This document shows positions 3,840-40,329 of a stretch of DNA of 64,000 nucleotides, piece by piece; within the stretch, counting starts at the first letter, position 1, and each line of letters starts with the position of its first letter. The notes under the pieces were generated by a model. That model ran no database searches. It was not told where the DNA came from and saw only the letters and a list, made by a program, of their open reading frames with translations. This DNA comes from an uncultured Gemmatimonadota bacterium (lineage in GTDB: Bacteria; JAAXHH01): positions 1,568,001 through 1,632,000 of the forward strand of contig OX638340.1 of assembly GCA_951812955.1 (NCBI GenBank), in the 5' to 3' direction. The position numbers were made by a program, and so were the translations under genes.

Positions 3840-4304
3840 TTAATGCTCGTCACCGATCAGTTCGTGAATCATCTGGACCAGTGCCTTGCTCGCCTCATCC
3901 ATGTTCGCCGACTCGCGGCGGGCCCCGAGGTAAAGATCCGCATACTGCTTGCAGATCGTAAGCGATGGCGCGAAGGCGCCGGCCGAATCCAGCTCGCGGC
4001 GCACACAGTCCACCGTACGATGAAACGTCTCGACCGTATCGAGGAACCCGTCCTTCAGTTCGGCCTCGCGCACTTTGCCCCAGATATCGGCCAGCACATC
4101 GCCTATTTCGGCCGGTTCGCAAACGCACAGGGTGTGCAGTTTCGGCCAGACCGCCCGGAACCGCTTCTCGACCTCTTCAAGCTTGTCCTCGCCGGGACTT
4201 TCAAGGGTCAGGGACCGCTGGATCAGTTTCTCGTATTCCGGTCCTTCCTGTGCCGCGGCGGGGATCGATATAGACGCAATAAGGAGCAATACTAACCAAC
4301 GCAT
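3840..4304 (-). CDS. Small secreted hypothetical protein (signal peptide, 4 Cys) encoded between the MFP and RND genes
   Basis: Opens with a signal peptide, MRWLVLLLIASISIPAAAQE. Same strand and spacing as the efflux operon. No recognisable family. Confidence 0.5.
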   Translation of the reverse strand: MRWLVLLLIASISIPAAAQEGPEYEKLIQRSLTLESPGEDKLEEVEKRFRAVWPKLHTLCVCEPAEIGDVLADIWGKVREAELKDGFLDTVETFHRTVDCVRRELDSAGAFAPSLTICKQYADLYLGARRESANMDEASKALVQMIHELIGDEH

Positions 4305-4380
4305 AATCTACCTCCCGTGACTGGGCATGTTGATTTCGCGTTCGTGTCTGACTCTTTGTGCTCGGTGATCGGTCAATTCG

Positions 4381-5979
4381 CTACTGCGGACGTCCGCCTC
4401 CATCCATCTTTCGCATATTGCGGAACTGCTCGATCATGAAAGCACGCTGCCTCTCTTCGTCCTCCGCGAAGCTCGGATCCTCTTCCACCTGCTTGTCGTA
4501 GGCCGCCTTGATCTCGGGATTCCGGAACATCCGCTCCTTCATCTGGGCGAGATCCATGTTCATCATACGGTTGCCGCCGCGCATGCCCCCGGTTCCGCCA
4601 CCGTCACCCTGTCCCGCGCCGCCCGCACCGGTCCTGCCGGATCCGCCGATTCCTTCCTGTGCCACCGGACGCCGTTCCGCGTTGCCCTGGCCGCCATCCG
4701 GGTTCGCCGTCGATGCTGCAGGCGCATCGGTCGATTCCGCACCCGAGCCGCCCCTACCTGCCGGCCGGGCGCCTGTTCCGCCATTCGTTCCTCCGGACCG
4801 TCCGCCCATTGCACCAGGCCTGCCGGCCATTCCCGATGGATCGCCGCCCATGCCACCGTCCATGCCTGCCGCGGCGGGCGGGGTCTGTCCAGCGATGCGT
4901 ACAGGCGCGCCGTTCCGGAGTCCTTCCTGGCCCACTGTAATGATGGAATCACCGTCGGACAGACCGGACAGCACCTCGACGTATTCCCCTTCGGCGATGC
5001 CGATTTCAAGGAGCCGCTTTTCGGCCGTGCCGTCCTGGAAAAGAAAGGCGTAGGATCCCTCCGCCTCGGCCACCAGGGCCTTCTTCTCGACCTGCAGCAC
5101 TTCTTCGTGGTTTGCGATCACCAGGTTGACGGTGGTAAACATGCCGGGTCTCAGCGTGCCTTGCCGATCCCTGATTTCCACCGTGACCTTTACCGTTCCG
5201 CTCTGGGGATCCACGACGGGACTGATCCGGGCGACCCGGCCCGCGTGGGTCTGGTCCGATCCCTCGACATTAATGCGCACGGACTGACCGGGCCGAACCT
5301 GTCCGATATCCTTTTCGGGCACGTATATGCGGGCAAGTAGCGGATCGAGATCCGCCGTCCGGAATACCACGTCATTCGCGTTCACCAGGTTTCCCACCTC
5401 GATCAACCGCTCCGTGATTATGCCGGAGAAAGGACTTCGAATCGTAGCGTATTCCAGTTGAAGCTTCGCCGACTCGTACTGGGTCTGTGCGGCCTCGTAC
5501 TGGAACTTCGTCTGTTCGAATTCCTGGCTGCTGAGCAGTTCCCGATCCAGCAGTTCCTGGGACCGATTGTAGTTCGATTCCAGGCTGTTCATGTTCACTT
5601 CCCGTTCCTTGAGCGTCAATTCCAGCGTGTCGGTGTCGAGCTGGGCAAGTGGCTGCCCTTCCTCCACGCGGTCGCCCTCCTCGACCAGGATGGTTTCCAC
5701 GAGCCCTTGCGTGCGGGAGACCACGTCCACGTGCCGCTCCGCCTCCAGCGAAGTGTAGGTCAGCAGCGTCGCGGCGATATTTCCCCGGCCCACGGTTTTC
5801 ACTTCGACCGGTATGGAAGCGCCGGTGCGCGCCATCGCGCCCATGCCGGGCCTGCCGCCGCGCTGAGCCTGATCTCCGTTTTCCTCCGCCTCCTCGTCGC
5901 CGCCGCAGGCGAGCGTGCCCGCCAACGCCAGTACCATCGACCAGGAAGCCAGTTTCCCTATCCCGAACCGCTTGAACAT
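4381..5979 (-). CDS. RND efflux membrane-fusion protein (HlyD/AcrA family periplasmic adaptor lipoprotein) with a ~170-aa Gly-rich C-terminal extension
   Basis: Biotinyl-lipoyl-like and beta-barrel MFP motifs (YESAKLQLEYATIRSPFSGII, VVDPQSGTVKVTVEI). Lipobox LAGTLAC. A GAAGGAG RBS sits 7 nt before the ATG at 5979; the ORF extends to 5994. The C-terminal tail is rich in GGMGG/GGTGG repeats. Confidence 0.85.
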   Translation of the reverse strand: MFKRFGIGKLASWSMVLALAGTLACGGDEEAEENGDQAQRGGRPGMGAMARTGASIPVEVKTVGRGNIAATLLTYTSLEAERHVDVVSRTQGLVETILVEEGDRVEEGQPLAQLDTDTLELTLKEREVNMNSLESNYNRSQELLDRELLSSQEFEQTKFQYEAAQTQYESAKLQLEYATIRSPFSGIITERLIEVGNLVNANDVVFRTADLDPLLARIYVPEKDIGQVRPGQSVRINVEGSDQTHAGRVARISPVVDPQSGTVKVTVEIRDRQGTLRPGMFTTVNLVIANHEEVLQVEKKALVAEAEGSYAFLFQDGTAEKRLLEIGIAEGEYVEVLSGLSDGDSIITVGQEGLRNGAPVRIAGQTPPAAAGMDGGMGGDPSGMAGRPGAMGGRSGGTNGGTGARPAGRGGSGAESTDAPAASTANPDGGQGNAERRPVAQEGIGGSGRTGAGGAGQGDGGGTGGMRGGNRMMNMDLAQMKERMFRNPEIKAAYDKQVEEDPSFAEDEERQRAFMIEQFRNMRKMDGGGRPQ

Positions 5980-6136
5980 GAACTGCTCCTTCAAATGTTA
6001 GACCCGGTGCACACCGGTCTCTTGATTTCTCCGGCCAACCTGCCCGCCCAAAGGGCTTTCCCTGCTACTTCAAAAGGACCCGGCCATCCGGACACGCCAT
6101 TGAATGGCACGGTGCCGGCCACTTCGGCCAGCCCCG

Positions 6137-6595
6137 CTATCTTCGACGGTATCCGCTTCTGAATCGCTCCTTGATCATGGTGAAGAACTTCGTCTGCTGT
6201 TCCGGGGTCAGCACCTCTTTGTGCGCCACGATGAAATCGAATACGATGGCCTCCCGTTCCGCCTGGAGCGAATCCATCTGCGCCTTGATCCGGTCGATCT
6301 CTCCGCGGTCTGTATCCGGCGCCATGAGCAGATCGTACAACTGGTCGCGTTTTTCTCGGTAACCTTCCCGGTAAGGCGTCAGTTGATCTCCGAGTCCGGA
6401 ACGCATTTGCCTGACCTGTTCCGCCTGTGTTTCAGTGAGACCGAGCCGTTCGGTTATGGACATCCTTCCCTCGCGCCGATCCTGCCGGTCGCGCCGTTCG
6501 TCGTCACCCCAGCGGTGATAGGCGCGGGTGGCCAGAGAGGCCAGGTTGATGACGGTCAGCAGGACCACGCCCCATATGATCAGTTTCTTCTTCAT
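6137..6595 (-). CDS. Spy/CpxP/ZraP-family periplasmic LTXXQ-motif protein (envelope stress chaperone / metal-resistance associated)
   Basis: N-terminal signal/TM segment and two LTXXQ motifs (LTETQAEQV, LTPEQQTKF). Charged helical protein immediately downstream of a sigma/anti-sigma pair. Confidence 0.7.
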   Translation of the reverse strand: MKKKLIIWGVVLLTVINLASLATRAYHRWGDDERRDRQDRREGRMSITERLGLTETQAEQVRQMRSGLGDQLTPYREGYREKRDQLYDLLMAPDTDRGEIDRIKAQMDSLQAEREAIVFDFIVAHKEVLTPEQQTKFFTMIKERFRSGYRRR

Positions 6596-8231: not shown

Positions 8232-9218
8232 ATGACGGAGGTGGACATGTCACCCATTACCGATGAGCAGATGGCATTCTTCAAAGACCAGGGATACCTG
8301 ATGGTGAGGGGGTTGCTGGATCAGGAGGAAGTACTCGATCCCGTGATCGAGGAATACGGTACCGTGCTCGATCAGTTGGCGGAAGAGCTTTTCCTGGCGG
8401 GTAAAATCGAATCGAAATACGAAGATCTGCCATTTGGCGAACGCATCACGAAAGTCTGGGGTGAAAGCGGCAAGGTCCATGCCCAGTGTTTCGATTTCAC
8501 CCTGCCCCAGGGCAACATCAAGGAAGACACGCCGTTCTGGTGCGGTCCGGCGGTGTTCAACGTCCTGACAGATCCGCGGCTGCTCGACGCCGTGGAGGCC
8601 TTCATCGGCCCCGAAATCTACTCCAACCCGGTCCAGCATGTACGCATCAAGCTTCCTGAACACTTGACGCCCATCAATCCGGCGACTGGGCGCATTCAGC
8701 TCGGCATATCCCCGTGGCACCAGGACAACGGCGTCGTCACGAAGGAGGCCGATGACACCCACATGCTCACGGTCTGGTTCTCGCTGAGGGAAGCGACGAT
8801 CGAACAGGGATGCCTCACCGTCATTCCCGAAAGCCACCGCGACGGCCTGCTGCACCACTGCCCTGACATCTGGGGCCTCGAAATTCCCGAGAAGGTGAAG
8901 GACCGGTCCGCCGCCGTTCCCATGCCGACCAAGCCCGGTGACGTCCTGTTCCTGCACAAGCACACCTGCCACTCGTCGCTGCCCAACAAGAGCAACGAGA
9001 TCCGGTGGAGCTACGACCTGAGGTACAACCCGATCGGCCAGGCCTCCGGACGGGGCGCCTTCCCGGGATTCGTGGCCCGCAGCCGGACCAATCCAGAGTG
9101 GGTCCTGACCGATCCCGTCGCGTGGAACCAGATGTGGCTGGATGCCAGGGACGCCCTCGCCGGCATGCCCAATCCGTCCTTCAACCGCTGGAGCAAGGAT
9201 CACGAAATCTGCGCGTGA
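8232..9218 (+). CDS. Phytanoyl-CoA dioxygenase (PhyH) family Fe(II)/2-oxoglutarate-dependent oxygenase
   Basis: PhyH-type HxD..H facial triad (WHQDNG ... HKHTCHSS) and the typical N-terminal FFKDQGYLMV motif. Confidence 0.8.
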   Translation: MTEVDMSPITDEQMAFFKDQGYLMVRGLLDQEEVLDPVIEEYGTVLDQLAEELFLAGKIESKYEDLPFGERITKVWGESGKVHAQCFDFTLPQGNIKEDTPFWCGPAVFNVLTDPRLLDAVEAFIGPEIYSNPVQHVRIKLPEHLTPINPATGRIQLGISPWHQDNGVVTKEADDTHMLTVWFSLREATIEQGCLTVIPESHRDGLLHHCPDIWGLEIPEKVKDRSAAVPMPTKPGDVLFLHKHTCHSSLPNKSNEIRWSYDLRYNPIGQASGRGAFPGFVARSRTNPEWVLTDPVAWNQMWLDARDALAGMPNPSFNRWSKDHEICA

Positions 9219-9386
9219 CAGGTCATCCCGTCCGGTAAATCTGCGCGTGACGCGCCATCTGTGCCAGAATCCACCCGGGCAAAGCGCGGCAGGATATGAA
9301 TGAATCCGGCGCCCGCCATTGGTGCGAGGGTGGCCGCGTCCGCAAGCTGGGGAACCACAAGCCCGGCCGGAACGATTCAACGCGAT

Positions 9387-28779: not shown

Positions 28780-29628
28780 TCAGCGCTTCCTGGCGATGAT
28801 GTCCTGCCGCGTCGTACTGGCGGTAGTCACCACGACGTTTTCCGCGGAGAAGGCCTCGGTGTCCTCAGTGGGTGGACCGTACAGGGCGTAGGATCCGGCG
28901 GGCATGAAGTAGGCCGAGTACTGTCCGCCTTCGTCAGAATAGACCGTCACCGAATCCGTCCTGCCGGGTTGAAACAAGGTTATGGGGTACCCACTCAGCG
29001 TCACGTCGTCCCGGAGGACCGCCGGCGTGGTGTTGTCGTGCTTGACGCTGCCTGAAACCTGGCCGGAGCTCGCCAGGTCGACCAGGCGGCCTGCCGGCGA
29101 GAACCTCATCCCGGTAATGTCGTGGACCCGTTGGATATCGCCCTCAAATGTGATCGAACGTATCAGGTCGAAATCGATTACGACGTCCGCCTTCCTGCCG
29201 CGCTCGACGACCACCGAGGTGTTTGCTTCGGCGATCATCTCCCTGCCCTGCGGATCCGTATACACTTCGTTGAACTGCACGCCATTCAACAGGGTCACCG
29301 TGACTTCGTGGATGTTGAGGCGTGCGGCGTCGTATCTACCCTCGACCAGGGAGAACACTTCCAGGACCCGCGTATCGCTTCCCCCCAGTTCGAACAGGTC
29401 GACGGTATGGGTCAAGGTGCCGGGGGTTCCGAACTCGCTGTTTGCCGTGGAACGAACGGACACGCCCGACATGACCACCACGACCGATCTGACGTGGTGC
29501 GGGATCGGAGTCTGAGCAGCCAGGCGCAACTGCAGGTCACTGATGACGCTTGATGTCGGGTCGCCGCAACCTGGGATAGCGGTCACCAGGAGCAGGATCA
29601 GAAGGCAATGACAGATTCGTTTTTTCAT
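28780..29628 (-). CDS. Hypothetical lipoprotein (signal peptide plus lipobox AIPGCG), beta-rich
   Basis: MKKRICHCLLILLLVTAIPGCG lipoprotein signal. No confident family. Confidence 0.6.
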   Translation of the reverse strand: MKKRICHCLLILLLVTAIPGCGDPTSSVISDLQLRLAAQTPIPHHVRSVVVVMSGVSVRSTANSEFGTPGTLTHTVDLFELGGSDTRVLEVFSLVEGRYDAARLNIHEVTVTLLNGVQFNEVYTDPQGREMIAEANTSVVVERGRKADVVIDFDLIRSITFEGDIQRVHDITGMRFSPAGRLVDLASSGQVSGSVKHDNTTPAVLRDDVTLSGYPITLFQPGRTDSVTVYSDEGGQYSAYFMPAGSYALYGPPTEDTEAFSAENVVVTTASTTRQDIIARKR

Positions 29629-29933
29629 GATCCGGATAGTCCATGAAGTCCGGCACGCACTGATTTATCCAACCTGTTCCGCAATCGGTTCAGCCTGAAA
29701 AGTACAGTTTCTTGACGTCTGTGTAAACTTGTTCCTTTTAAGCAGTTAACGCGATTTCCCGGAGCTTCGGCCACCGTATCTCCTGTCGTAAGCAGGTTAG
29801 GCGCAGGGTAAGCGACGGAAGCCTTAAAGGGTCTATTGAATCAAATGACTGCGGGGTAATCACTTTCTATTGCCAAAGAGACCGCATTTACCTATATCTA
29901 TAGAATTGTGAACTTCACAGCCGGAGTTTTTCG

Positions 29934-30437
29934 ATGATCGACGCCAGCCGGAAATTTCTCTTCGCCATCGCCGCCACGCTGCTCGTGGTTACACTTAGCG
30001 TTTCGGGCGAACTCTCGGAGGCCGTCCCGGAGCCCCCGGTCGACGCACCAACGGGCGCATCAGCCAACAAACCCATCCAGGTAGACTGGAACCTCCTGTC
30101 CAGCCTCAACTACCGTACCGGCAAACCAAGCGCGGAGTTGGCGGCGCTCGATGGCAAATTCGTAAAGGTCCCCGGATTTACGGTAACGCTTGAAGACTGG
30201 GCGTCCTCTGCGAAGGAATTCCTCCTCGTTCCCTATGTCGGCGCCTGCATCCACACGCCCCCGCCCCCGCCCAACCAGCTCGTCTACATAGAGATGGTGA
30301 AGGGCAAATGGGCGTTTCTGGACGGGTGGAACCCGGTGTGGGTCGAGGGCGTACTCAAGATCGAGATGACCAAGAGCGTGTACGGCCCCGTCGGCTTCAC
30401 CATCACCGGCCAGCGGGTCTATCCGTACGAGTACTGA
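29934..30437 (+). CDS. Secreted DUF3299-like protein, encoded upstream of a MacB/FtsX-type ABC transporter
   Basis: Signal peptide, then VPYVGACIHTPPPPPNQLVYIEM, which is characteristic of DUF3299. Gene neighbourhood with an ABC ATPase and FtsX permease. Confidence 0.6.
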   Translation: MIDASRKFLFAIAATLLVVTLSVSGELSEAVPEPPVDAPTGASANKPIQVDWNLLSSLNYRTGKPSAELAALDGKFVKVPGFTVTLEDWASSAKEFLLVPYVGACIHTPPPPPNQLVYIEMVKGKWAFLDGWNPVWVEGVLKIEMTKSVYGPVGFTITGQRVYPYEY

Positions 30438-30584
30438 TCCGCGATGCGGACACCGACGTGATCTGCAGAGCAGACACCTGTTTGACCAGCGATGCGGACA
30501 GTTGTGTGAATTTTGCGCGCGCACTCGCTGAGCCGGGTACCCGCCGTTTTTCGTGGATCTACGCTTCGAGGGGATAAGCTATAG

Positions 30585-31268
30585 ATGAGTTTCACAGTCG
30601 ACGTCCGACGCCTGCGCTTCCGCTACGGAGGCGGCCCCTGGGTGTTGGACATCCCCGAGTTGACCCTCGAGCGGGGGACACGCGCGTTCCTGTTCGGTCC
30701 CAGCGGCAGCGGCAAGACGACGCTACTCGGTGTGCTGGCGGGGGTCCTGGAAGCGACTGAGGGCGAGATCAGGGTGCTGGGCGAAGACCTTGCCTCACTG
30801 TCGGGAGCACGGCGGGACGCCTTCCGGGCGGAGCACATCGGCTATGTCTTCCAGATGTTCAACCTCATCCCCTACCTGTCGGTGCTCGACAATATCGCCC
30901 TTCCTGTTCGCATGCACGCGGGGCGCCGGGCCCGGCTGGACGGCAAGGGTGTGAAGGAGACCGCCGCGCTGCTTGCCGAACACCTCCAGATCGGAAACCT
31001 GCTGGATAACCAGGTGACCGAACTTTCGGTGGGACAGCAGCAAAGGGTTGCGGCCTGCCGTGCGCTCATCGGGGCCCCGGAGCTCATCGTCGCCGATGAA
31101 CCGACCTCCTCCCTGGACTTCGACCGCCGCGAGGCCTTCCTCGATCTGCTCTTCCAGGAATGCGAGCGTGCCGGCGCAACGTTGGTGTTCGTGAGCCACG
31201 ACCGCACGCTGGAGGGCAAGTTCTCCCGCACCATCTCGCTTCCCGACATCAACAAGGCGTTGCGCTGA
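30585..31268 (+). CDS. ABC transporter ATP-binding protein (MacB/LolD-like)
   Basis: Walker A GPSGSGKTT, signature LSVGQQQR, Walker B LIVADEPT. Confidence 0.85.
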   Translation: MSFTVDVRRLRFRYGGGPWVLDIPELTLERGTRAFLFGPSGSGKTTLLGVLAGVLEATEGEIRVLGEDLASLSGARRDAFRAEHIGYVFQMFNLIPYLSVLDNIALPVRMHAGRRARLDGKGVKETAALLAEHLQIGNLLDNQVTELSVGQQQRVAACRALIGAPELIVADEPTSSLDFDRREAFLDLLFQECERAGATLVFVSHDRTLEGKFSRTISLPDINKALR

Positions 31269-32731
31269 TGGTGATTCTGGACCTCGCGCTCAAGTCGCTC
31301 CGCAACCGCGCCTTCAGCACCTCGCTCACGGTAGGCTCCATCGCCCTCAGCGTCGCCCTCATGATCGGCGTCGAGAACGTGCGCATGGGCATGCGCGAGA
31401 GTTTCTCAAACACCATCAGCCAGACCGATCTGATCGTCGGTACCAAGGGCGGCACGATTCAGTTGCTATTGTATTCGGTCTTCGGCTTGGGATCACCCAC
31501 GGAGAATGTTTCGTGGGAGGCCTACAGGCAGTGGGCGGAGCATCCCGCGGTCGCTTGGACCATCCCATACAGTCTTGGGGACAGTCACAGAGGATTCCGG
31601 GTCATCGGCACGAACCAGGACTTCCATCGTCACTACCGCTACCGCGGAGGTCAGGAAATCGCGCTGGCGGAGGGAAGGGCGAACGTGGATCTATTCGATG
31701 TAACCCTGGGCGCGGACGTGGCAGCCGAGTTGAATTACGCGTTGGGCGACGAGATTGCGGTGACGCACGGGCTCGGTGAGGTGGGTTTCCTGAACCACGA
31801 CCACATGCCCTTCACGGTCGTGGGCGTCCTCGCCAAGACATTCACCCCCGTTGACCGAGCGATCTACGTGTCCCTCGAGGGCATGGAGGCCATCCACTGG
31901 GAGGGCGGTGCCCCTCCGGCGTCGGACGACGAACACGTCCACGATGAGACGGATGCGGCCACCGCGGACGATGGACACGTCCACGATGAGGCGGATGCGG
32001 CCACCGCGGACGATGGACACGACGAAGAGGCGGATGCGGCCACCGCGGACGATGGGCACGACGAAGAGACGGATACGGCCACTGCGGACGACGAACACGT
32101 CCACGATGAGGCGGATGAGGCCACCGCGGACGATGGGCACGACGAGGCGGTGGATTTTTCGATCGAGGATGTCGAAGTCAGGCAGGTGACGTCGTTCTTC
32201 GTGGGGATGACCAGCCGCCGGGACGTGCTACAACTGCAGCGCCAGATCAACGATTTCGAGAACGAGCCCATGATGGCCGTGATCCCCGGAGTCGCCCTGA
32301 ACGAGATGTGGCAGGGCCTGGGTTACGCCGAGACCGGCCTCCGGCTGGTGACCATCTTCGTCGTGTTGGTAGGGTTACTGGGCATGCTGGTCTCACTCTA
32401 CACGTCGCTTAACGAGCGCCGACGGGAAATGGCGATCCTGCGCGCCGTCGGGGCGGGACCCAACCGAATCGTCTCACTGCTGGTGCTCGAGTCGGTGTGC
32501 CTGTCCGCGGCGGGAGCCATCGGCGGACTCGCCCTGGTTTACATGTTGCTCTCAGCCGGACAGTCGTTTGTCGAGGCGCAAGTCGGGCTCTACATTCCGA
32601 TCCGGCCCCCCGGCTCAATCGAATTCCTCTACCTGGCCGCCGTGGTGACGGCCGGATTCGTGATGGGCTTCGTGCCCGCACTCAAGGCCTACCGCACGGC
32701 ACTCCATGACGGACTGTCGGTACGGGTGTAA
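31268..32731 (+). CDS. FtsX-like ABC transporter permease (MacB-type periplasmic domain) with a His/Asp-rich tandem-repeat insertion
   Basis: N-terminal TM plus MacB_PCD-like region, then C-terminal FtsX 3-TM bundle (MAILRAVGAGP ...). ATG overlaps the upstream stop. The repeat insertion lies at 31925-32155. Confidence 0.8.
   Translation: MVILDLALKSLRNRAFSTSLTVGSIALSVALMIGVENVRMGMRESFSNTISQTDLIVGTKGGTIQLLLYSVFGLGSPTENVSWEAYRQWAEHPAVAWTIPYSLGDSHRGFRVIGTNQDFHRHYRYRGGQEIALAEGRANVDLFDVTLGADVAAELNYALGDEIAVTHGLGEVGFLNHDHMPFTVVGVLAKTFTPVDRAIYVSLEGMEAIHWEGGAPPASDDEHVHDETDAATADDGHVHDEADAATADDGHDEEADAATADDGHDEETDTATADDEHVHDEADEATADDGHDEAVDFSIEDVEVRQVTSFFVGMTSRRDVLQLQRQINDFENEPMMAVIPGVALNEMWQGLGYAETGLRLVTIFVVLVGLLGMLVSLYTSLNERRREMAILRAVGAGPNRIVSLLVLESVCLSAAGAIGGLALVYMLLSAGQSFVEAQVGLYIPIRPPGSIEFLYLAAVVTAGFVMGFVPALKAYRTALHDGLSVRV
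31925..32155 (+). repeat. In-frame tandem repeat (about 5.5 units of 39-42 bp) encoding His/Asp-rich repeats HVHDEADAATADDG in the periplasmic domain of the FtsX permease
   Basis: Read directly. Encoded peptide is DDEHVHDETDAATADDGHVHDEADAATADDGHDEEADAATADDGHDEETDTATADDEHVHDEADEATADDGHDEAVD. Confidence 0.85.
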
Positions 32732-33216
32732 TGGGTTCTTCGCTCGACTTCCACCGAGCGACGGGATCTTGGGGCTCCTGGCAGGCTCCGGCCGAACCAC
32801 GGATTCCTGGCGTCCGTGTAAGATTATTCTTTTTAAGCAGTTACCTCAGATTTGCCCTGCGCGTCAATTCTTCCTCGATTACCGGAACCAGTCTGTCTGA
32901 ATTCGTAACCACACCGGAGATCATGCGAGTTTGCAAGTTTTTTCACTTTACGCTCGGCTCCGGCGACAGTCACCTGGCTACTTATAAAAAACAACGTCCT
33001 GAATAACTTGTTATTGTATACTTCCATCCATTCCCCGTCCTAATCCAGAAAACGCGAGCTCCAGGGGGAGGACTGCAGACGTTGAATCTTGGCCGGGACA
33101 GCTTATAACTTGATACCCGGCAGCAGGTCGTGTCCTGGAGGCAAGGTAAGGCATTACGGACAGCCATTTTACGTTGACACCCGCCGATCCGTGAGCCTAT
33201 ATTGCCTGCCTGCCAG

Positions 33217-33301
33217 GGTGGGGTGTCTGAGTGGCCGAAAGAGACGGTCTTGAAAACCGTTGTACCTTTGCGGGTACCGTGGGTTCGAATCCCACCCCCA
33301 C
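33217..33301 (+). tRNA. tRNA-Ser (anticodon TGA), type II with long variable arm
   Basis: Manually folded. Acceptor GGTGGGG/CCCCACC, D-stem GTCT/AGAC, anticodon stem ACGGT/ACCGT with loop CTTGAAA, T-arm GTGGG-TTCGAAT-CCCAC, discriminator G. CCA is not encoded. Confidence 0.85.
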
Positions 33302-33325
33302 CGTCCAACGGCTCTGGAGATCATT

Positions 33326-33417
33326 CCGGAGAGGTGCGAGAGTGGCTGAATCGGATCGACTGCTAATCGATTGTGGGTCAAAAAACCTACCGAGGGTTCG
33401 AATCCCTCCCTCTCCGT
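33326..33417 (+). tRNA. tRNA-Ser (anticodon GCT), type II
   Basis: Manually folded. Acceptor GGAGAGG/CCTCTCC, anticodon stem ATCGA/TCGAT with loop CTGCTAA, T-arm GAGGG-TTCGAAT-CCCTC, discriminator G. Confidence 0.85.
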
Positions 33418-33489
33418 CAGAAGTATCAAAGCCGGTCCTGGTCGGCCGAATATCAGAAGTATCAAAGCCGCTCCTGGTCGGCCGAATAG
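33418..33489. repeat. Two tandem 36-bp direct repeats (TCAGAAGTATCAAAGCCGNTCCTGGTCGGCCGAATA) beginning at the nucleotide after the tRNA-Ser(GCT) 3' end
   Basis: Read directly. Copies at 33418-33453 and 33454-33489. Confidence 0.85.
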
Positions 33490-33536
33490 CGGCATTCACC
33501 GGGCTCCGGCCCGCATCGGAAGCCCCATCCAGGAAT

Positions 33537-33608
33537 ACCATCGGGAGCCCTGTACTTTGAATTACCATCGGGAGCCCTATTCTTGAGATTCCATCAGGAG
33601 CGCCATTC
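33537..33608. repeat. About 2.5 tandem copies of a 28-bp repeat (TACCATCGGGAGCCCT core) upstream of a small membrane-protein gene
   Basis: Read directly. Cores at 33537-33552 and 33565-33580, with a degenerate third copy at 33591-33606. Confidence 0.7.
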
Positions 33609-34037
33609 ATGCAGTACCAGTTGAAGCGAATCGACCCGTGGTCCGCGTGCAAGATTACTTTTCTCATCGCCGGCGTTGTGGGGTTCGTTGTTGGGGCGCT
33701 TTACGCCGTGCTGATCACGATGATGGCGAGTTTCATGGGCATGGTGGGGATGTCCGAAGGCATGCCCGATGAGATGGGCTATATCGTAGGGGCCACAGGC
33801 TTCATCGCGGTCGTAGCCTGGATCGTAATCACCATCCTGTACGCCGTGGTCGGTGCCCTGGTGGTCTCGCTGGCTACCTGGCTGTACAACCTGTTGGCGG
33901 GCGCGATCGGCGGCGTGCAACTGACCTTCGAAGCCTTACCGTCAGTTGTGCCCGCTCCGACTGAAGCGACGACACCCGGTTCCGACACTTCGACCGCGAC
34001 GGGAGACGCCGGCGGTTCAGAACCCCAGGCAACGTAA
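33609..34037 (+). CDS. Small integral membrane protein (DUF3566-like), hypothetical
   Basis: Two to three hydrophobic TM helices and a Thr/Ser/Gly-rich tail. Coding-like codon usage. Confidence 0.5.
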   Translation: MQYQLKRIDPWSACKITFLIAGVVGFVVGALYAVLITMMASFMGMVGMSEGMPDEMGYIVGATGFIAVVAWIVITILYAVVGALVVSLATWLYNLLAGAIGGVQLTFEALPSVVPAPTEATTPGSDTSTATGDAGGSEPQAT

Positions 34038-34043
34038 CGATCT

Positions 34044-35618
34044 ATGTCCCGGTCCGTACGCGTCCGCTTTGCCCCCAGCCCCACCGGACTGCTGCACATC
34101 GGCAGCGCCCACACGGGCCTGTTCAACTGGCTCTTTGCCCGCAAGGAAAAGGGCCGTTTTCTCCTGCGCATCGAAGATACCGACACCGCCCGATCCCGTC
34201 AGGAATGGGTCGATGCCATTTACGAGGTGCTGGAGTGGATGGGCATGGACTGGGACGAGGATGTGGTCTACCAATCCCGCCGTATTGAACGGCACGTTGA
34301 CCGCGCCCGGCATCTGGTCGAAACCGGCAGGGCCTACCGGTGCTACTACCTCCCTGAAGAGCTGGAAGCGAAGAAAAAGGAAGCCCTGGCGGAGGGCCGG
34401 TCCTGGCGAAACGACCGCCGCTACGCGGACATCACCGCCGCGGAGGCGGAAGCGCTGGAGGCCGAAGGCCGCAAGCCGGTCATCCGGCTCAAGATTCCCG
34501 AAGGCAAAACCATATTCCGGGACCGGATACTTGGCGAGATCGAGGTGGGGAACGAGACCATCGACGATTTCGTTATCGTACGGTCCAACGGCACGCCCCT
34601 GTACCACCTGGCCGTAGTGGTCGACGACGTGGACATGGAGGTGTCCCACGTCATCCGGGGCATCGACCACGTCACCAATACGACCAAGCACATCCACCTG
34701 TTCCAGGCCCTGGGCGCCGAGTTGCCCGAATTCGCCCATTTACCCAGTATTTTGGGAGAAGACAAGAAGAAGCTGTCGAAGCGCCACGGCGCCGCGTCCG
34801 TCTCCGAATACCGCGACGCCGGCTACCTGTCCGACGCCGTGGTCAACTTCCTCTCGCTGCTCGGGTGGCAGACAGGCGACGACCAGGAGTTCTTCACCCG
34901 CGCCGAACTCATGGAGCGATTCTCCCTGGACCAGGTCCACAAGCGGGACACCGTCTTTGACCTGCGCAAATTCGAGTGGCTGAACGGCCAGCACATCATG
35001 GCACTGTCCAACGAGGAACTGTGGACCCTGGCGAAGCCATTCCTGAAGCGCGAAGGGCTCGTTGGCGATCGGCCCAGCGGCAGCGAGAAGACCGACTGTC
35101 ATTCCGAAAGACAGACCGTCGACGGCAATACCAGCGGACAGCCCGAAGGACAGACTGATGGGCGGCCCAAAGGAAAGACCGCAGGCCACGCTTACGCGAT
35201 GGAAGTCGTCGCTCTGCTCAGGGAGCGATGCCGCACGTTGGCCGACTTCGCGGTCCAGGGAAGGTTCTTCTTCACGGACGACTTCGACTACAATTCAAAG
35301 GCCGTACGAAAGCACTGGGCGAAAGAGCCGGATGCCGTGTCCGAACGGATCGTCTGGCTCCGAGACGAGTTCGCGGTCCTCGAAGTGTTCGACGTCGAAG
35401 CAGTGGAGGGCGTCATCAGGGATCTGTCGGAACGTCACGGGCTGAAGGCGGCCCAGTTCATCCATCCCTGCCGCGTGGCGCTGACCGGTGAAATGGCCGG
35501 CCCGTCCCTGTTCCACCTGGTTGCCGTGCTGGGAAAAGCGGTATGTGTCGAACGCCTGAACCGCGCACTAGATCGTCTGCCGGACGCCATCGAGCAGGCG
35601 GCGGTGAACCAGGGCTAA
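34044..35618 (+). CDS. gltX: Glutamate--tRNA ligase (GluRS) with a low-complexity insertion in the C-terminal region
   Basis: Class I HIGH motif (PTGLLHIGSAHT) and KMSKS (KLSKR). Contains an unusual Gly/Gln/Thr-rich insert, GDRPSGSEKTDCHSERQTVDGNTSGQPEGQTDGRPKGKTAG. Confidence 0.9.
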   Translation: MSRSVRVRFAPSPTGLLHIGSAHTGLFNWLFARKEKGRFLLRIEDTDTARSRQEWVDAIYEVLEWMGMDWDEDVVYQSRRIERHVDRARHLVETGRAYRCYYLPEELEAKKKEALAEGRSWRNDRRYADITAAEAEALEAEGRKPVIRLKIPEGKTIFRDRILGEIEVGNETIDDFVIVRSNGTPLYHLAVVVDDVDMEVSHVIRGIDHVTNTTKHIHLFQALGAELPEFAHLPSILGEDKKKLSKRHGAASVSEYRDAGYLSDAVVNFLSLLGWQTGDDQEFFTRAELMERFSLDQVHKRDTVFDLRKFEWLNGQHIMALSNEELWTLAKPFLKREGLVGDRPSGSEKTDCHSERQTVDGNTSGQPEGQTDGRPKGKTAGHAYAMEVVALLRERCRTLADFAVQGRFFFTDDFDYNSKAVRKHWAKEPDAVSERIVWLRDEFAVLEVFDVEAVEGVIRDLSERHGLKAAQFIHPCRVALTGEMAGPSLFHLVAVLGKAVCVERLNRALDRLPDAIEQAAVNQG

Positions 35619-37419: not shown

Positions 37420-37474
37420 GGGTCAGGTAAGACTCCGGATGTCATGGGTCATGGGACGTGTCTGCACGGCGGGC

Positions 37475-39199
37475 CTATGAGAGGCTTCGCTGGGCCGTGC
37501 CACGGGAGAAGTAGTTGGAACCCAGTAGCACGACGGACACGAGCAGCAGGAGCAGGACGGCGTAGGCCGCGGCGCTGCCGATGTTGAACTGGCGCAGGTG
37601 GGACAGAATCTCCATGGCGATTGGACGGTTGTCGTAGACGTACAGGAGGATGGACGCCACGAATTCGCCCAGGGCGGTGACAAAGGCAAGCAGTGTGCCG
37701 GCGAGCACGCCGGGTCCGATGAGCGGCAGGGTGACGCGGCGGAAGGCGTAGAACCACCCCGCGCCGAGGTTGCGCGCCGCTTCTTCCAGGGAGTCGTCCA
37801 GCTGTCTGAAGGCCGCCGCTGAAGCCCGGAACACGATGGGCAGGTGGCGGACGAAATAGGCGATGGGCAACAGCCAGAATGAGCCCACGAGCACCTGGCC
37901 GAAGCTGAAGGGCGTGCCCTGGCTGAAGGCGACGATCAGGTTGATGGCCACCACGGTGCCGGGCAGCGCCCAGGGCACCATCACGAGGGCGTCGAGCAGT
38001 TTGCGGCCCCGGAATGCGCCCTTCACCACCAGGTAGGCCGCGCTGACCCCTATGGCCACGTCGGCCGCCGTGGAAATCACCGCCATGTTCACACTGTTCC
38101 GGATCGGTTCCCAGAAGGTGGGATCCTGGAAAAGCCTGCCGTAGTTGTCCGATGTATATACCTGGGGCAGAATCTGGTGCGTCCACGTACCATCCTGTAC
38201 GAAGGAAAGCAGGAGGATGGTCAGATGGGGCAGCAGGAGCACGATCACCATGGCGATACCGGCACCACCCGCGAGCAGGCGCGCCCAGCGCCCGCGTATC
38301 TCGCGCCGAAGAACAGCCGTGCCCTTGGTGCTCATGGTGTATTGCCGGCGCCCCTCGTAGTGGCGCATCCAGAAGAGAAAGGCGATGGAGAAAGCGGAGA
38401 GGACCACGGTCTGCGTGACAGCCATGGCCATGTCGCCGTTCAGTTTGGACGTGTAGATGTTGAGGCTGAGAAAACGGAATCCCCCGGCGAAGATGAACGG
38501 CGCGCTGAAGGAGTTCATGGACGTCATGAAGACCAGGAGCGTGGCGCCCACCAGCGCCGGCGTCAGCAGGGGCAGGGTGACGGATCGGAAACTGAACCAG
38601 GACGACGCGCCCAGGTTGCGGGCCGCCTCCATGACCGCCGGATCGATGCCTCTCAGCGCGGCCGAAGTGAACAGGTAGAAGAAGACGTACATCGTATAAC
38701 CGTGCACGAGCAGCACGGCCCACACCCCGTTCAGCGAGAAGGGCGGCCGTTCCAGGCCAAGGGCCGCCTGGATGAGTCGCGGGACCATACCGCTTTCGCT
38801 GTAGAGAAAGAGGAATGCGAGCACACCCACCAGGGGCGGCAGGACGATAGGCAGCGTGGCCAGCGCCGAGAAGACGGACCGGCCCGGAAAGTCGTAGTGG
38901 GTGAAGATGAGGGCCAGGGGCACGCCGATCAGCGCCGAGAGCAGCACGCTCCCCACGGAGACCATGACACTGTTGAAGAGACCCTCCATGTAGGAGGGGT
39001 ATTCGGGATCGAAAAACTCGCCGTAATTGCCGAAGCCGAACTGTCCCTCGCGGAACAGGCTCTCCCAGAGCACAAGTGCGGCGGGATAGACGACGTAGCC
39101 GAGGAGGATGAATCCCAGCAGGATGAATACGAAGGTCCGGGGCTGGCGAAGGGCGGTGAGTAGGGCACCGGGCTGGCGGAGGGTGGCGGGCTGGGTCAT
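37475..39199 (-). CDS. ABC transporter permease, iron(III)/thiamine-type (FbpB/ThiP-like, two fused BPD_transp_1 domains)
   Basis: 574 aa with duplicated permease domains and EAA-like loops. Chosen over the overlapping Arg/Pro-rich 595-aa frame, which lacks TM character. Confidence 0.85.
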   Translation of the reverse strand: MTQPATLRQPGALLTALRQPRTFVFILLGFILLGYVVYPAALVLWESLFREGQFGFGNYGEFFDPEYPSYMEGLFNSVMVSVGSVLLSALIGVPLALIFTHYDFPGRSVFSALATLPIVLPPLVGVLAFLFLYSESGMVPRLIQAALGLERPPFSLNGVWAVLLVHGYTMYVFFYLFTSAALRGIDPAVMEAARNLGASSWFSFRSVTLPLLTPALVGATLLVFMTSMNSFSAPFIFAGGFRFLSLNIYTSKLNGDMAMAVTQTVVLSAFSIAFLFWMRHYEGRRQYTMSTKGTAVLRREIRGRWARLLAGGAGIAMVIVLLLPHLTILLLSFVQDGTWTHQILPQVYTSDNYGRLFQDPTFWEPIRNSVNMAVISTAADVAIGVSAAYLVVKGAFRGRKLLDALVMVPWALPGTVVAINLIVAFSQGTPFSFGQVLVGSFWLLPIAYFVRHLPIVFRASAAAFRQLDDSLEEAARNLGAGWFYAFRRVTLPLIGPGVLAGTLLAFVTALGEFVASILLYVYDNRPIAMEILSHLRQFNIGSAAAYAVLLLLLVSVVLLGSNYFSRGTAQRSLS

Positions 39200-39207
39200 G
39201 ATCCGGT

Positions 39208-40329
39208 TCAGTCCCCCAGGATGACCGCCTGGTCACCAGGGATGTGGACGCGCACCGTATCGCCCGGCTGACTTGATGCCATTGGAACTACCGCATTCTC
39301 GACGACCTGGATGGGCACGCCCCCGGCATCGATGGTGAACTCGACAGTCGCGCCTTTGAAACGCCGAGTGGAAACGATACCAGCAATGGTGCTTTCCGCG
39401 TCATCGCCGGTCAACCGTGCGGCCTGGGGATGCAGAGCCAGGTGAACGGCGCCTTCGGCGTGTTTGGCGCTTTCTGCCGATTCGGCCTCTGCGGACGGCG
39501 AGGACGGCGCACCTTCATCGGCCGGCGTGGCCGGCGCGGGCAGCGGGACGGTCAGTCCGCTTTCATGTCGGAATACGGTACCGCCCCTTTCGGACGAGAC
39601 CACGCCCTCCCACAGGTTCATGTTGCCCATGAAGGCGGCCACGAAGCGGTTGGCCGGCCTGCGATAAATCACCTCCGGCCGGTCCAGCTGCCGGCACTCG
39701 CCCTCCTCCATCACCGCGATCCGATCGGAAACGGCCAGCGCTTCCTCCTGGTCGTGGGTGACGTAAACGGCCGTGATGCCCAGTTTCGTCTGCAGCTCCC
39801 GGATCTGGTCCCGCGTCTCCTCACGCAACTTGGTATCCAGGTTGGACAGGGGTTCGTCGAGCAGCAACAGGTCGGGTTCGATGACCACGGCCCGGGCAAG
39901 GGCCACCCGCTGCTGCTGTCCGCCCGACAACTGGGGTACGGGACGCCTTTCCAGCCCGGTCAGCCCCACCAGGTCGAGCGCCCGCGCCACACGGTCGGCT
40001 ATCTCGGGTCCGGCCACCTTCCGGGTGCGCAGACCAAAGGCCACGTTCTCGAAAACGGTCATATGGGGGAAGAGGGCGTAGTTCTGGAAGACCATCCCGG
40101 TGTTGCGCCGGTGGGCGGGTAGACTGGTGACGTCCTGGCCGTCGAAGTGTACCGCGCCGGACGTGGGGAAGATGAACCCGGCGATCATGCGGAGTATGGT
40201 GGTCTTCCCGCAGCCACTCGGTCCCAGCAGGCTGAAGAACTCACCGTCGGCGACGGTCAGGCTGATGCCCTTGACGACCGGGGTGTCGTCGAAATGCTTG
40301 GTGAGGCGATCGAGGGTGACCTGGGCCAT
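39208..40329 (-). CDS. ABC transporter ATP-binding protein (FbpC/PotA-like with C-terminal TOBE domain)
   Basis: Walker [10 protein letters not shown], signature LSGGQQQR, Walker B LLLLDEPLS, plus a C-terminal TOBE-like region. Confidence 0.9.
   Translation of the reverse strand: MAQVTLDRLTKHFDDTPVVKGISLTVADGEFFSLLGPSGCGKTTILRMIAGFIFPTSGAVHFDGQDVTSLPAHRRNTGMVFQNYALFPHMTVFENVAFGLRTRKVAGPEIADRVARALDLVGLTGLERRPVPQLSGGQQQRVALARAVVIEPDLLLLDEPLSNLDTKLREETRDQIRELQTKLGITAVYVTHDQEEALAVSDRIAVMEEGECRQLDRPEVIYRRPANRFVAAFMGNMNLWEGVVSSERGGTVFRHESGLTVPLPAPATPADEGAPSSPSAEAESAESAKHAEGAVHLALHPQAARLTGDDAESTIAGIVSTRRFKGATVEFTIDAGGVPIQVVENAVVPMASSQPGDTVRVHIPGDQAVILGD

Follow-up and report, generated by a model that had tools for sequence, protein, structure and literature searches.

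A histidine-rich tandem repeat in the permease of a Zrg/PA4063-PA4066-type operon of marine Gemmatimonadota, and its near-exclusive alternation with ZrgA

The ZrgABCDE system of Vibrio cholerae and V. parahaemolyticus and the PA4063-PA4066 system of Pseudomonas aeruginosa are both Zur-regulated, and growth of Vibrio in zinc-poor medium requires the Zrg system together with ZnuABC (PMC9817125, PMC9820375). More recently, the homologous transporter of P. aeruginosa has been argued to export pyochelin-cobalt and not to import zinc (PMC11481552). These systems have a separate ATPase, a MacB-like permease with four transmembrane (TM) helices, a DUF3299 protein (ZrgE/PA4066) and a soluble protein, ZrgA/PA4063, with loops rich in histidine (His), aspartate (Asp) and glutamate (Glu). 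Here, we describe a homologous operon in a stretch of 64,000 nucleotides (the window) from an uncultured Gemmatimonadota bacterium (assembly GCA_951812955.1, contig OX638340.1, positions 1,568,001 to 1,632,000). In this operon the permease itself carries an acidic, His-rich tandem repeat in a periplasmic loop. Across the loci that we compared, such a loop and a nearby ZrgA gene are nearly mutually exclusive.

The genes of the operon are given below; here and throughout, coordinates without a locus name are those of the window.

29934-30437, + strand: DUF3299 periplasmic protein (ZrgE/PA4066 homologue), 167 amino acids; Pfam PF11736, E 6e-32; PDB 4hsp, E 7e-24
30585-31268, + strand: ATP-binding cassette (ABC) ATPase of the YbbA/FtsE/LolD/MacB type, 227 amino acids; Pfam ABC_tran, E 5e-30
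31268-32731, + strand: type VII ABC (MacB-like) permease, 487 amino acids, ATG at 31268 and stop at 32731; Pfam MacB_PCD and FtsX

A reading of the letters without database searches (hereafter the sequence-only reading) had already placed a DUF3299 gene and an ATPase gene next to the permease, and Pfam confirms both. A GACIHxPPPP motif is conserved in the DUF3299 protein, which begins with a hydrophobic signal or anchor. The best NCBIfam matches of the ATPase are YbbA, FtsE and LolD, and its stop codon overlaps the start of the permease (TGATG).

The structure matched by the DUF3299 protein, 4hsp, is that of PA4066 of P. aeruginosa (PMC8561739). In a genome scan we also found many Pseudomonas loci with about 48% permease identity. 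For example, locus L063 encodes, in this order, a His-rich protein, an ATPase, a permease and a DUF3299 protein, the first matching PA4063 (7ahw, E 3e-65) and V. cholerae ZrgA (8ezw) and the last matching PA4066 (E 3e-58). P0065, a near-identical allele that shares 97.5% identity with the window permease outside the loop, aligns with the L063 permease at 48% identity along its full length of 421 residues (E 2e-146). Because the DUF3299 protein matches PA4066 and the permease is homologous to that of L063, we assign the window operon by homology to the ZrgABCDE/PA4063-PA4066 family.

The window operon nonetheless departs from the described members of this family. Its order is DUF3299, ATPase, permease, compared to ZrgA, ATPase, permease, DUF3299 in the known systems, and its host is a marine Gemmatimonadota rather than a Vibrio or Pseudomonas. 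In the Pseudomonas permeases the loop is plain and 29 residues long, but in the window permease it contains the His-rich repeat. Unlike the known systems, the window has no ZrgA/PA4063 gene (ZrgD stands outside this comparison): a ZrgA profile matched nothing at E up to 10 among all the open reading frames (ORFs) of the 64 kb.

The repeat was detected with Tandem Repeats Finder and read unit by unit as a codon table in the permease frame, with the following result.

31898-32185, + strand: variable periplasmic loop, residues 211-306 (AlphaFold2 model, family alignment)
31925-32128, + strand: five full tandem units of 42/42/39/39/42 bp (Tandem Repeats Finder and codon table)
31925-31966, + strand: unit 1, DDEHVHDETDAATA, 14 amino acids in the permease frame
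31967-32008, + strand: unit 2, DDGHVHDEADAATA, 14 amino acids in the permease frame
32009-32047, + strand: unit 3, DDGHDEEADAATA, 13 amino acids in the permease frame
32048-32086, + strand: unit 4, DDGHDEETDTATA, 13 amino acids in the permease frame
32087-32128, + strand: unit 5, DDEHVHDEADEATA, 14 amino acids in the permease frame
32129-32173, + strand: degenerate terminal unit, DDGHDEAVDFSIEDV (codon table), with a tail, SIEDV, that is conserved in 120/120 orthologues

A single array, at 31923-32141/32145, was found by Tandem Repeats Finder (period 42, 5.4 copies, 86% matches, score 305); it also scores at period 39 and as a double unit of 81 bp (2.7 copies, score 306). The encoded pattern is DDxH(VH)DExDAATA, with DDGHAHDEEAEAAPA as a consensus; units of 14 amino acids have HVH and units of 13 amino acids a single His. 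The array at 31925-32155, its unit and its copy number of about 5.5 had thus been given correctly by the sequence-only reading. Residues 211-306 contain 9 of the 18 His of the protein and 39 Asp and Glu, with only 1 lysine (Lys) or arginine (Arg). Judging from its conservation, the SIEDV tail of the terminal unit is the C-terminal end of the ancestral loop. Since MacB_PCD precedes the array and FtsX comes after it in a single frame (Pfam), the repeat is internal to one gene. An identical permease of 487 amino acids is present in the database, from a contig of 3.8 Mb.

An AlphaFold2 model of the permease built with a 76-sequence alignment has a mean predicted local distance difference test (pLDDT) of 86.9 and a predicted template modelling score of 0.79. 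It contains TM1 at residues 15-47, a periplasmic domain at about 48-339 and TM2-4 at 340-483 (TM2 at 340-383). A Foldseek search matched LolCDE, MacB, HrtBA, YbbAP and FtsEX with a probability of 1.00 and E down to 6e-14. Together with Pfam and the secondary structure of the model, this identifies the permease as a member of the type VII ABC (MacB/LolCDE/FtsEX) superfamily. MacB, LolCDE, HrtBA, YbbAP and FtsEX likewise have four TM helices, and type VII systems use a LolD/FtsE-like ATPase similar to that of the window; sequence identity between the window permease and the solved structures is just 9-19%. Unlike MacAB-type systems, the window operon has no MacA/TolC-type partner gene nearby, and genes of the HlyD and OEP families were not seen in its vicinity, either in the window or in relatives. 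We therefore rejected a MacAB-TolC-type tripartite efflux pump, for which adaptor and outer-membrane genes are missing near the operon.

The loop exits after the helix at residues 203-210, which ends in His210, and re-enters at the strand at 309-314, the start of the final beta-alpha-beta unit of the periplasmic domain ahead of TM2. Homology with type VII ABC permeases of solved structure places the loop on the periplasmic side. Residues 220-286, which correspond to the repeat, form the sole low-confidence stretch of the model (pLDDT <50), and the repeat loop is predicted to be intrinsically disordered.

Next to this loop, the periplasmic domain contains residues that hardly vary. In an alignment of 151 sequences, at least 150 retain each of His167, His177, His210, Asp105 and Asp196; the codons of these residues lie within 31268-31900, and His210 is the last residue ahead of the variable loop. 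Three His and an Asp are typical zinc-site chemistry, and we regard the five residues as a candidate fixed metal site. They are common to the Zrg/PA4063-PA4066 permeases and the window permease. This set and the His-rich loop were identified by comparison within the Zrg subfamily alone, with MacB and LolC outside it. The sequence-only reading had suggested that the repeat adapts an exporter to a metal-related role. This has to be revised, as the whole family is linked to metal with or without the repeat and has the near-invariant His/Asp set.

We compared the repeat among close relatives using the best 120 database matches (68-100% identity). All are from marine Gemmatimonadota, several of them named Candidatus Palauibacter. 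Units of the DDGH[AV]HDE...AEAAPA type are found at the loop site in 120/120 of these orthologues, in loops of 26-202 amino acids (14% His, 40% Asp plus Glu), and the reading frame is intact in every allele. A total of 514 units could be extracted from this set. Their modal length is 15 amino acids. An HxH pair is present in 96-97% of the units, with its second His kept in 96%, and Asp-Asp stands ahead of the pair in 91-96%; the linkers between these motifs are far more variable, and Lys and Arg each account for 0.0% of the residues.

Copy number varies within a population. Outside the loop, 17 proteins share at least 97% identity with that of the window; their loops fall into groups of 27, 39, 53-55, 66-69 and 79 amino acids, spaced about one unit apart, with one further allele of 95 amino acids. 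Because alleles this similar carry loops of 27-95 amino acids, copy number evolves faster than substitutions elsewhere in the protein, and the variation between strains that the sequence-only reading anticipated is indeed found. With five full units and a degenerate one, the window allele is among the longest of its near-identical group. Among close relatives in general, copy number spans 1 to about 14 units.

The same loop is also variable across the wider family. Among 1.84 billion cluster representatives, a search returned 6,701 relatives (2,392 at E up to 1e-10 and 940 at E up to 1e-30), of which the best 150, at 37-84% identity, were aligned. In these representatives the loop measures 9-174 amino acids, with a median of 29. 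Half of them (75/150) have 0-1 His in the loop, 64/150 (43%) have at least 4 and 38/150 have at least 8. Among the loops longer than 45 amino acids, 34/38 are His-rich. The His-rich loops are made of unrelated units, for example HEHESHDEHAA, EHGEHG, HDHDHD and DEHEKHSEH, and the expansions therefore arose independently. His-rich composition at the loop site is found in at least nine lineages, and its carriers include Gemmatimonadota, Rhodobacteraceae (Pseudoruegeria aquimaris) and an Oligoflexales genome. Together with the homology of the operon to ZrgABCDE and PA4063-PA4066, this recurrence bears out the metal link that had been proposed from the letters of the window.

Four long loops lack His-rich composition, and two of them (P0123 and P0125) consist of repeats rich in methionine (Met) and proline (Pro), PPGTPMVMPGA. 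Gemmatimonadaceae relatives with Met/Pro-rich repeats in this loop (P0123 and P0125; L022, 7001-8416; L055, 6995-8383; motifs PPGTPMVMPGA and AMPGASPPP) have no ZrgA nearby. Such Met-rich motifs suggest Cu(I)-type chemistry, and the loop may thus set the metal preference.

The closest known counterparts of the window loop are the loops of ZrgA/PA4063 (PF10986), which are likewise disordered, periplasmic, rich in His, Asp and Glu and variable in length. The His-rich loop of V. cholerae ZrgA provides 4-5 extra zinc sites in vitro, mostly of low affinity (PMC9820375), and the PA4063 loops contribute to micromolar zinc sites (PMC8561739). The window module differs in residing on a membrane permease instead of a soluble protein and in being a clean tandem repeat of 13-15 amino acids with one HxH pair per unit. 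A flexible His- and acid-rich loop of varied length on a zinc-uptake component is also found in ZnuA and other cluster A-I proteins, where it is thought to capture or sense zinc (PMC9820375). ZnuA, however, has an unrelated fold and belongs to another class of transporter (type II, an importer that uses a soluble binding protein), and its loop is not made of tandem repeats.

The distribution of the two modules was assessed with a ZrgA profile made from 53 locus-encoded homologues, for 5 of which the family was checked in Pfam (PF10986, 'ZrgA family zinc uptake protein'). The profile scan found no ZrgA at the loci of the relatives L001-L004, L007 and L072. Nor was ZrgA found, in a first scan of genome loci, beside the His-rich-loop permeases of other lineages, where the operon consists of ATPase, permease and usually then DUF3299. 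In the main count, which pools 117 genome and metagenome loci with enough flanking DNA, ZrgA is nearby in 0/14 loci with at least 8 His in the loop, in 1/4 with 4-7 His and in 83/99 with 0-3 His. Overall, a loop with at least 4 His has ZrgA nearby in 1/18 loci (Fisher p = 1.5e-10, for loci that are not phylogenetically independent). In an earlier and smaller set of genome loci, grouped into lineages at 70% identity, ZrgA accompanies 0/10 His-rich compared to 12/23 plain loops (p = 0.005).

Locus L011 (Longimicrobiales, permease 65% identical) illustrates the converse of the window arrangement. Its permease has a plain loop and the adjacent gene encodes a ZrgA (4114-4944, - strand; PF10986, E 2e-35) whose own loop is a His/Asp repeat, (HDEDD)n; in the Palauibacter group, which belongs to one lineage with L011, ZrgA is absent from the locus and the repeat is on the permease. 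The generic metal or cation sponge of the sequence-only reading is in this respect only partly retained: the metal link holds, and the likely role is more specific, as the loop occurs almost only where ZrgA is missing.

Metal-related genes are also found beside some of these operons. In L004, whose permease is 81% identical to that of the window, folE2 (8453-9271, - strand; PF02649, E 8e-95) is convergent with the permease and directly 3' of it. The folE2 gene encodes a zinc-independent GTP cyclohydrolase I and is a classic member of the Zur regulon, so that its position beside the L004 operon hints at a context of zinc starvation. Metal-related neighbours of other His-rich-loop operons are found at L085 (1008-2114, - strand) and L088 (480-1387): one such operon adjoins a HupE/UreJ-family gene (nickel/cobalt-transport type) and another adjoins two MerC-family genes.

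From homology, composition, recurrence and complementary distribution, we propose with moderate confidence that the loop acts as a tethered, multivalent, low-affinity metal-capture arm, most likely for Zn2+, standing in for ZrgA. In this mechanism, the loop would replace the His-rich loops of the stand-alone ZrgA/PA4063 that is missing from these operons and would concentrate a divalent transition metal beside the fixed His/Asp cluster of the periplasmic domain. The metal would next be handed on by ATP-driven movement of that domain, reaching either the DUF3299 protein or the inside of the cell, and units would be gained or lost through slippage or unequal recombination between units. We infer the binding and the identity of the metal, the hand-off to the conserved His/Asp residues, the direction of transport and the zinc-responsive regulation. 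A more far-reaching version is tentative and, in our view, doubtful: the loop may be a built-in replacement of ZrgA that lets a MacB-fold machine fish for its own metal without a binding protein, with copy number tuning capture to ambient marine metal and loop chemistry (mostly His/Asp, Met/Pro in some Gemmatimonadaceae) setting the metal preference.

A number of observations weigh against a capture arm in place of ZrgA. The association is no longer significant once lineages are merged at 60% identity (p = 0.13), where the test loses power. ZrgA is also missing nearby in 16 plain-loop operons, so the His-rich module is not obligatory, and L113 encodes both a ZrgA (1242-1853) and a permease (4986-6284) with 5 His in the loop, which is neither a repeat nor acidic. 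No other locus was found to combine ZrgA with 4 or more loop His; given L113 and the 16 plain-loop operons, we rejected strict complementarity. In the window genome, ZrgA could be encoded elsewhere, beyond the 64 kb. Upstream of the operon we found no Zur box or other conserved operator, and no Zur-box model exists for Gemmatimonadota. V. cholerae ZrgA without its His-rich loop supports unimpaired growth in zinc-poor medium (PMC9820375), and loops of this kind can therefore be dispensable. Finally, the direction and the substrate of transport are unsettled for the family as a whole, since export of pyochelin-cobalt has been argued (PMC11481552).

The dispensability of the ZrgA loop in vivo (PMC9820375) would also fit a repeat that is simply a tolerated low-complexity expansion, in which slippage-prone DNA rich in GAC, GAT and CAC has little or no function and His is incidental. 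So would the 26-202 amino acids of the loop in close orthologues, with no obvious constraint, the plain 29-residue loop in half of the family representatives and the loss of the second His from units of the window allele, where 3 of 6 units have a single His, itself a further difficulty for the capture arm. However, we consider such an expansion unlikely: His-rich loops have been built from unrelated units at the same site in at least nine lineages, 34 of the 38 long loops are His-rich, HxH persists in 96-97% of the 514 units despite drift of the linkers, every allele is in frame, and the His-rich loop and ZrgA nearly exclude each other. Function and unstable expansion, which the sequence-only reading had set against each other, are not alternatives, as the repeat is unstable and also looks selected. 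An error of assembly or of reading frame is barely conceivable. The array is overlapped by three ORFs, at 31691-32140 and 31864-32271 (- strand) and at 31851-32189 (+ strand), but we rejected them as true genes because Pfam domains flank the array in a single frame that orthologues keep. Likewise, an assembly artefact, a doubt raised by the sequence-only reading, was rejected because the same type of repeat is found at the same site in 120/120 of the closest orthologues from independent assemblies. In total, more than 120 independent assemblies keep both frame and site, and the array is just about 220 bp long with units that differ from one another.

Other accounts grant the loop a role with metal and differ on what that role is. 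As a sensor or gate, it would bind metal when this is plentiful and then inhibit or modulate the transporter. For PA4063 a role of this kind has already been suggested, and it has also been considered for the His-rich loop of ZnuA; PA4063 has a zinc affinity that is micromolar only, and the role proposed for it is a negative regulatory one (PMC8561739, PMC9820375). The position of the loop between two periplasmic lobes and near TM2 would suit a gate, as ordering induced by metal could affect the movement of the domain. Yet a range of 1 to about 14 units among close relatives is unexpected for a sensor, and we consider this role quite improbable. The system could also have another job, such as the handling of nickel, cobalt or copper or the export of metal or of a metallophore, with a loop that binds the metal in question or acts as a general buffer for Ca or Mg. 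The pyochelin-cobalt export model for PA4064-PA4065 of P. aeruginosa (PMC11481552) points in this direction. So do the HupE/UreJ and MerC genes beside other His-rich-loop operons and the Met/Pro-rich repeats at the same loop, which suggest a chemistry tuned to the metal. To our knowledge, the solved type VII ABC proteins (MacB, LolCDE, HrtBA) are extruders or extractors and not importers. Nevertheless, we found neither a membrane-fusion or outer-membrane partner nor metallophore synthesis genes near the operon, His with carboxylates is not a chemistry specific for Ca or Mg, and folE2 adjoins the operon in L004. As Vibrio genetics also favours zinc acquisition (PMC9817125, PMC9820375), we see only a slim chance for such a job.

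While the transporter family and His-rich zinc loops are already known, two aspects appear to be new: that the permease itself bears the His-rich module, in the form of a rapidly evolving tandem repeat, and that this module alternates near-exclusively with ZrgA. A literature search found no paper on His-rich permease loops or on their alternation with ZrgA. The Zrg/PA4063-PA4066 permease has the fold of an extruder and not of an importer, and both zinc import and pyochelin-cobalt export have been proposed for these systems (PMC9820375, PMC11481552). With the His-rich module on either ZrgA or the permease loop and almost never on both, and with the start of that loop beside the near-invariant three His and two Asp, we hypothesize that the periplasmic domain of the permease is the place where metal is received; judging from this pattern, a permease that carries the loop could function in the absence of ZrgA. 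The alleles of 1 to about 14 units form a natural allelic series in near-identical backgrounds, and in populations of marine and sponge-associated Gemmatimonadota the repeat could be used as a marker of metal limitation.

The operon is flanked by the following features.

28780-29628, - strand: DUF4382 lipoprotein gene, divergent from the operon; same position in the relatives L001-L003
29870-29898, + strand: candidate sigma-70-type promoter, TTGCCA (29870-29875), 17-nt spacer, TATATC (29893-29898), from reading the sequence
29907-29919: perfect palindrome TGTGAAcTTCACA, seen by eye between the candidate -10 (29893-29898) and the ribosome-binding site (RBS) GGAG (29923-29926) of the DUF3299 gene
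33217-33303: tRNA-Ser, anticodon TGA, downstream of the operon
33327-33418: tRNA-Ser, anticodon GCT, downstream of the operon

The promoter blocks TATTGCCAAnAG and CTATATnTAT are also found upstream of the DUF3299 gene in the relatives L001 and L072. A promoter and terminator scan gave nothing informative for the operon and did not report the TTGCCA/TATATC pair, so the evidence for this promoter is weak. The right arm of TGTGAAcTTCACA and the RBS region are common to L004 and L007, but the left arm is absent from L001, L072 and L004, and the palindrome therefore cannot be called a conserved operator or a Zur box. A further upstream palindrome, CTATAtcTATAG, was likewise seen by eye; the repeat tool reported no inverted repeat upstream of the DUF3299 gene. 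An Rfam scan of 29000-34500 gave only the two tRNA-Ser genes, so that the operon carries neither a riboswitch nor any other known RNA element.

A lactonase gene also lies upstream, on the strand opposite to the operon, and the synteny of lactonase and DUF4382 is kept in the related Gemmatimonadota genome GCA_009835325.1. Downstream are gltX and the tRNA-Ser pair, which is preceded by a near-consensus sigma-70 promoter (TTGACA, 18 nt, TATATT; 33174-33203). The G+C content of this tRNA-Ser region (33174-33418) is below that of its surroundings. Finally, the ORF at 37449-39236 (- strand, 595 amino acids) has no Pfam match at E up to 1e-4. It is flanked by a gene for a major facilitator superfamily transporter and by a pair encoding an ABC ATPase with a TOBE domain and a solute-binding protein, and may encode a divergent ABC permease.

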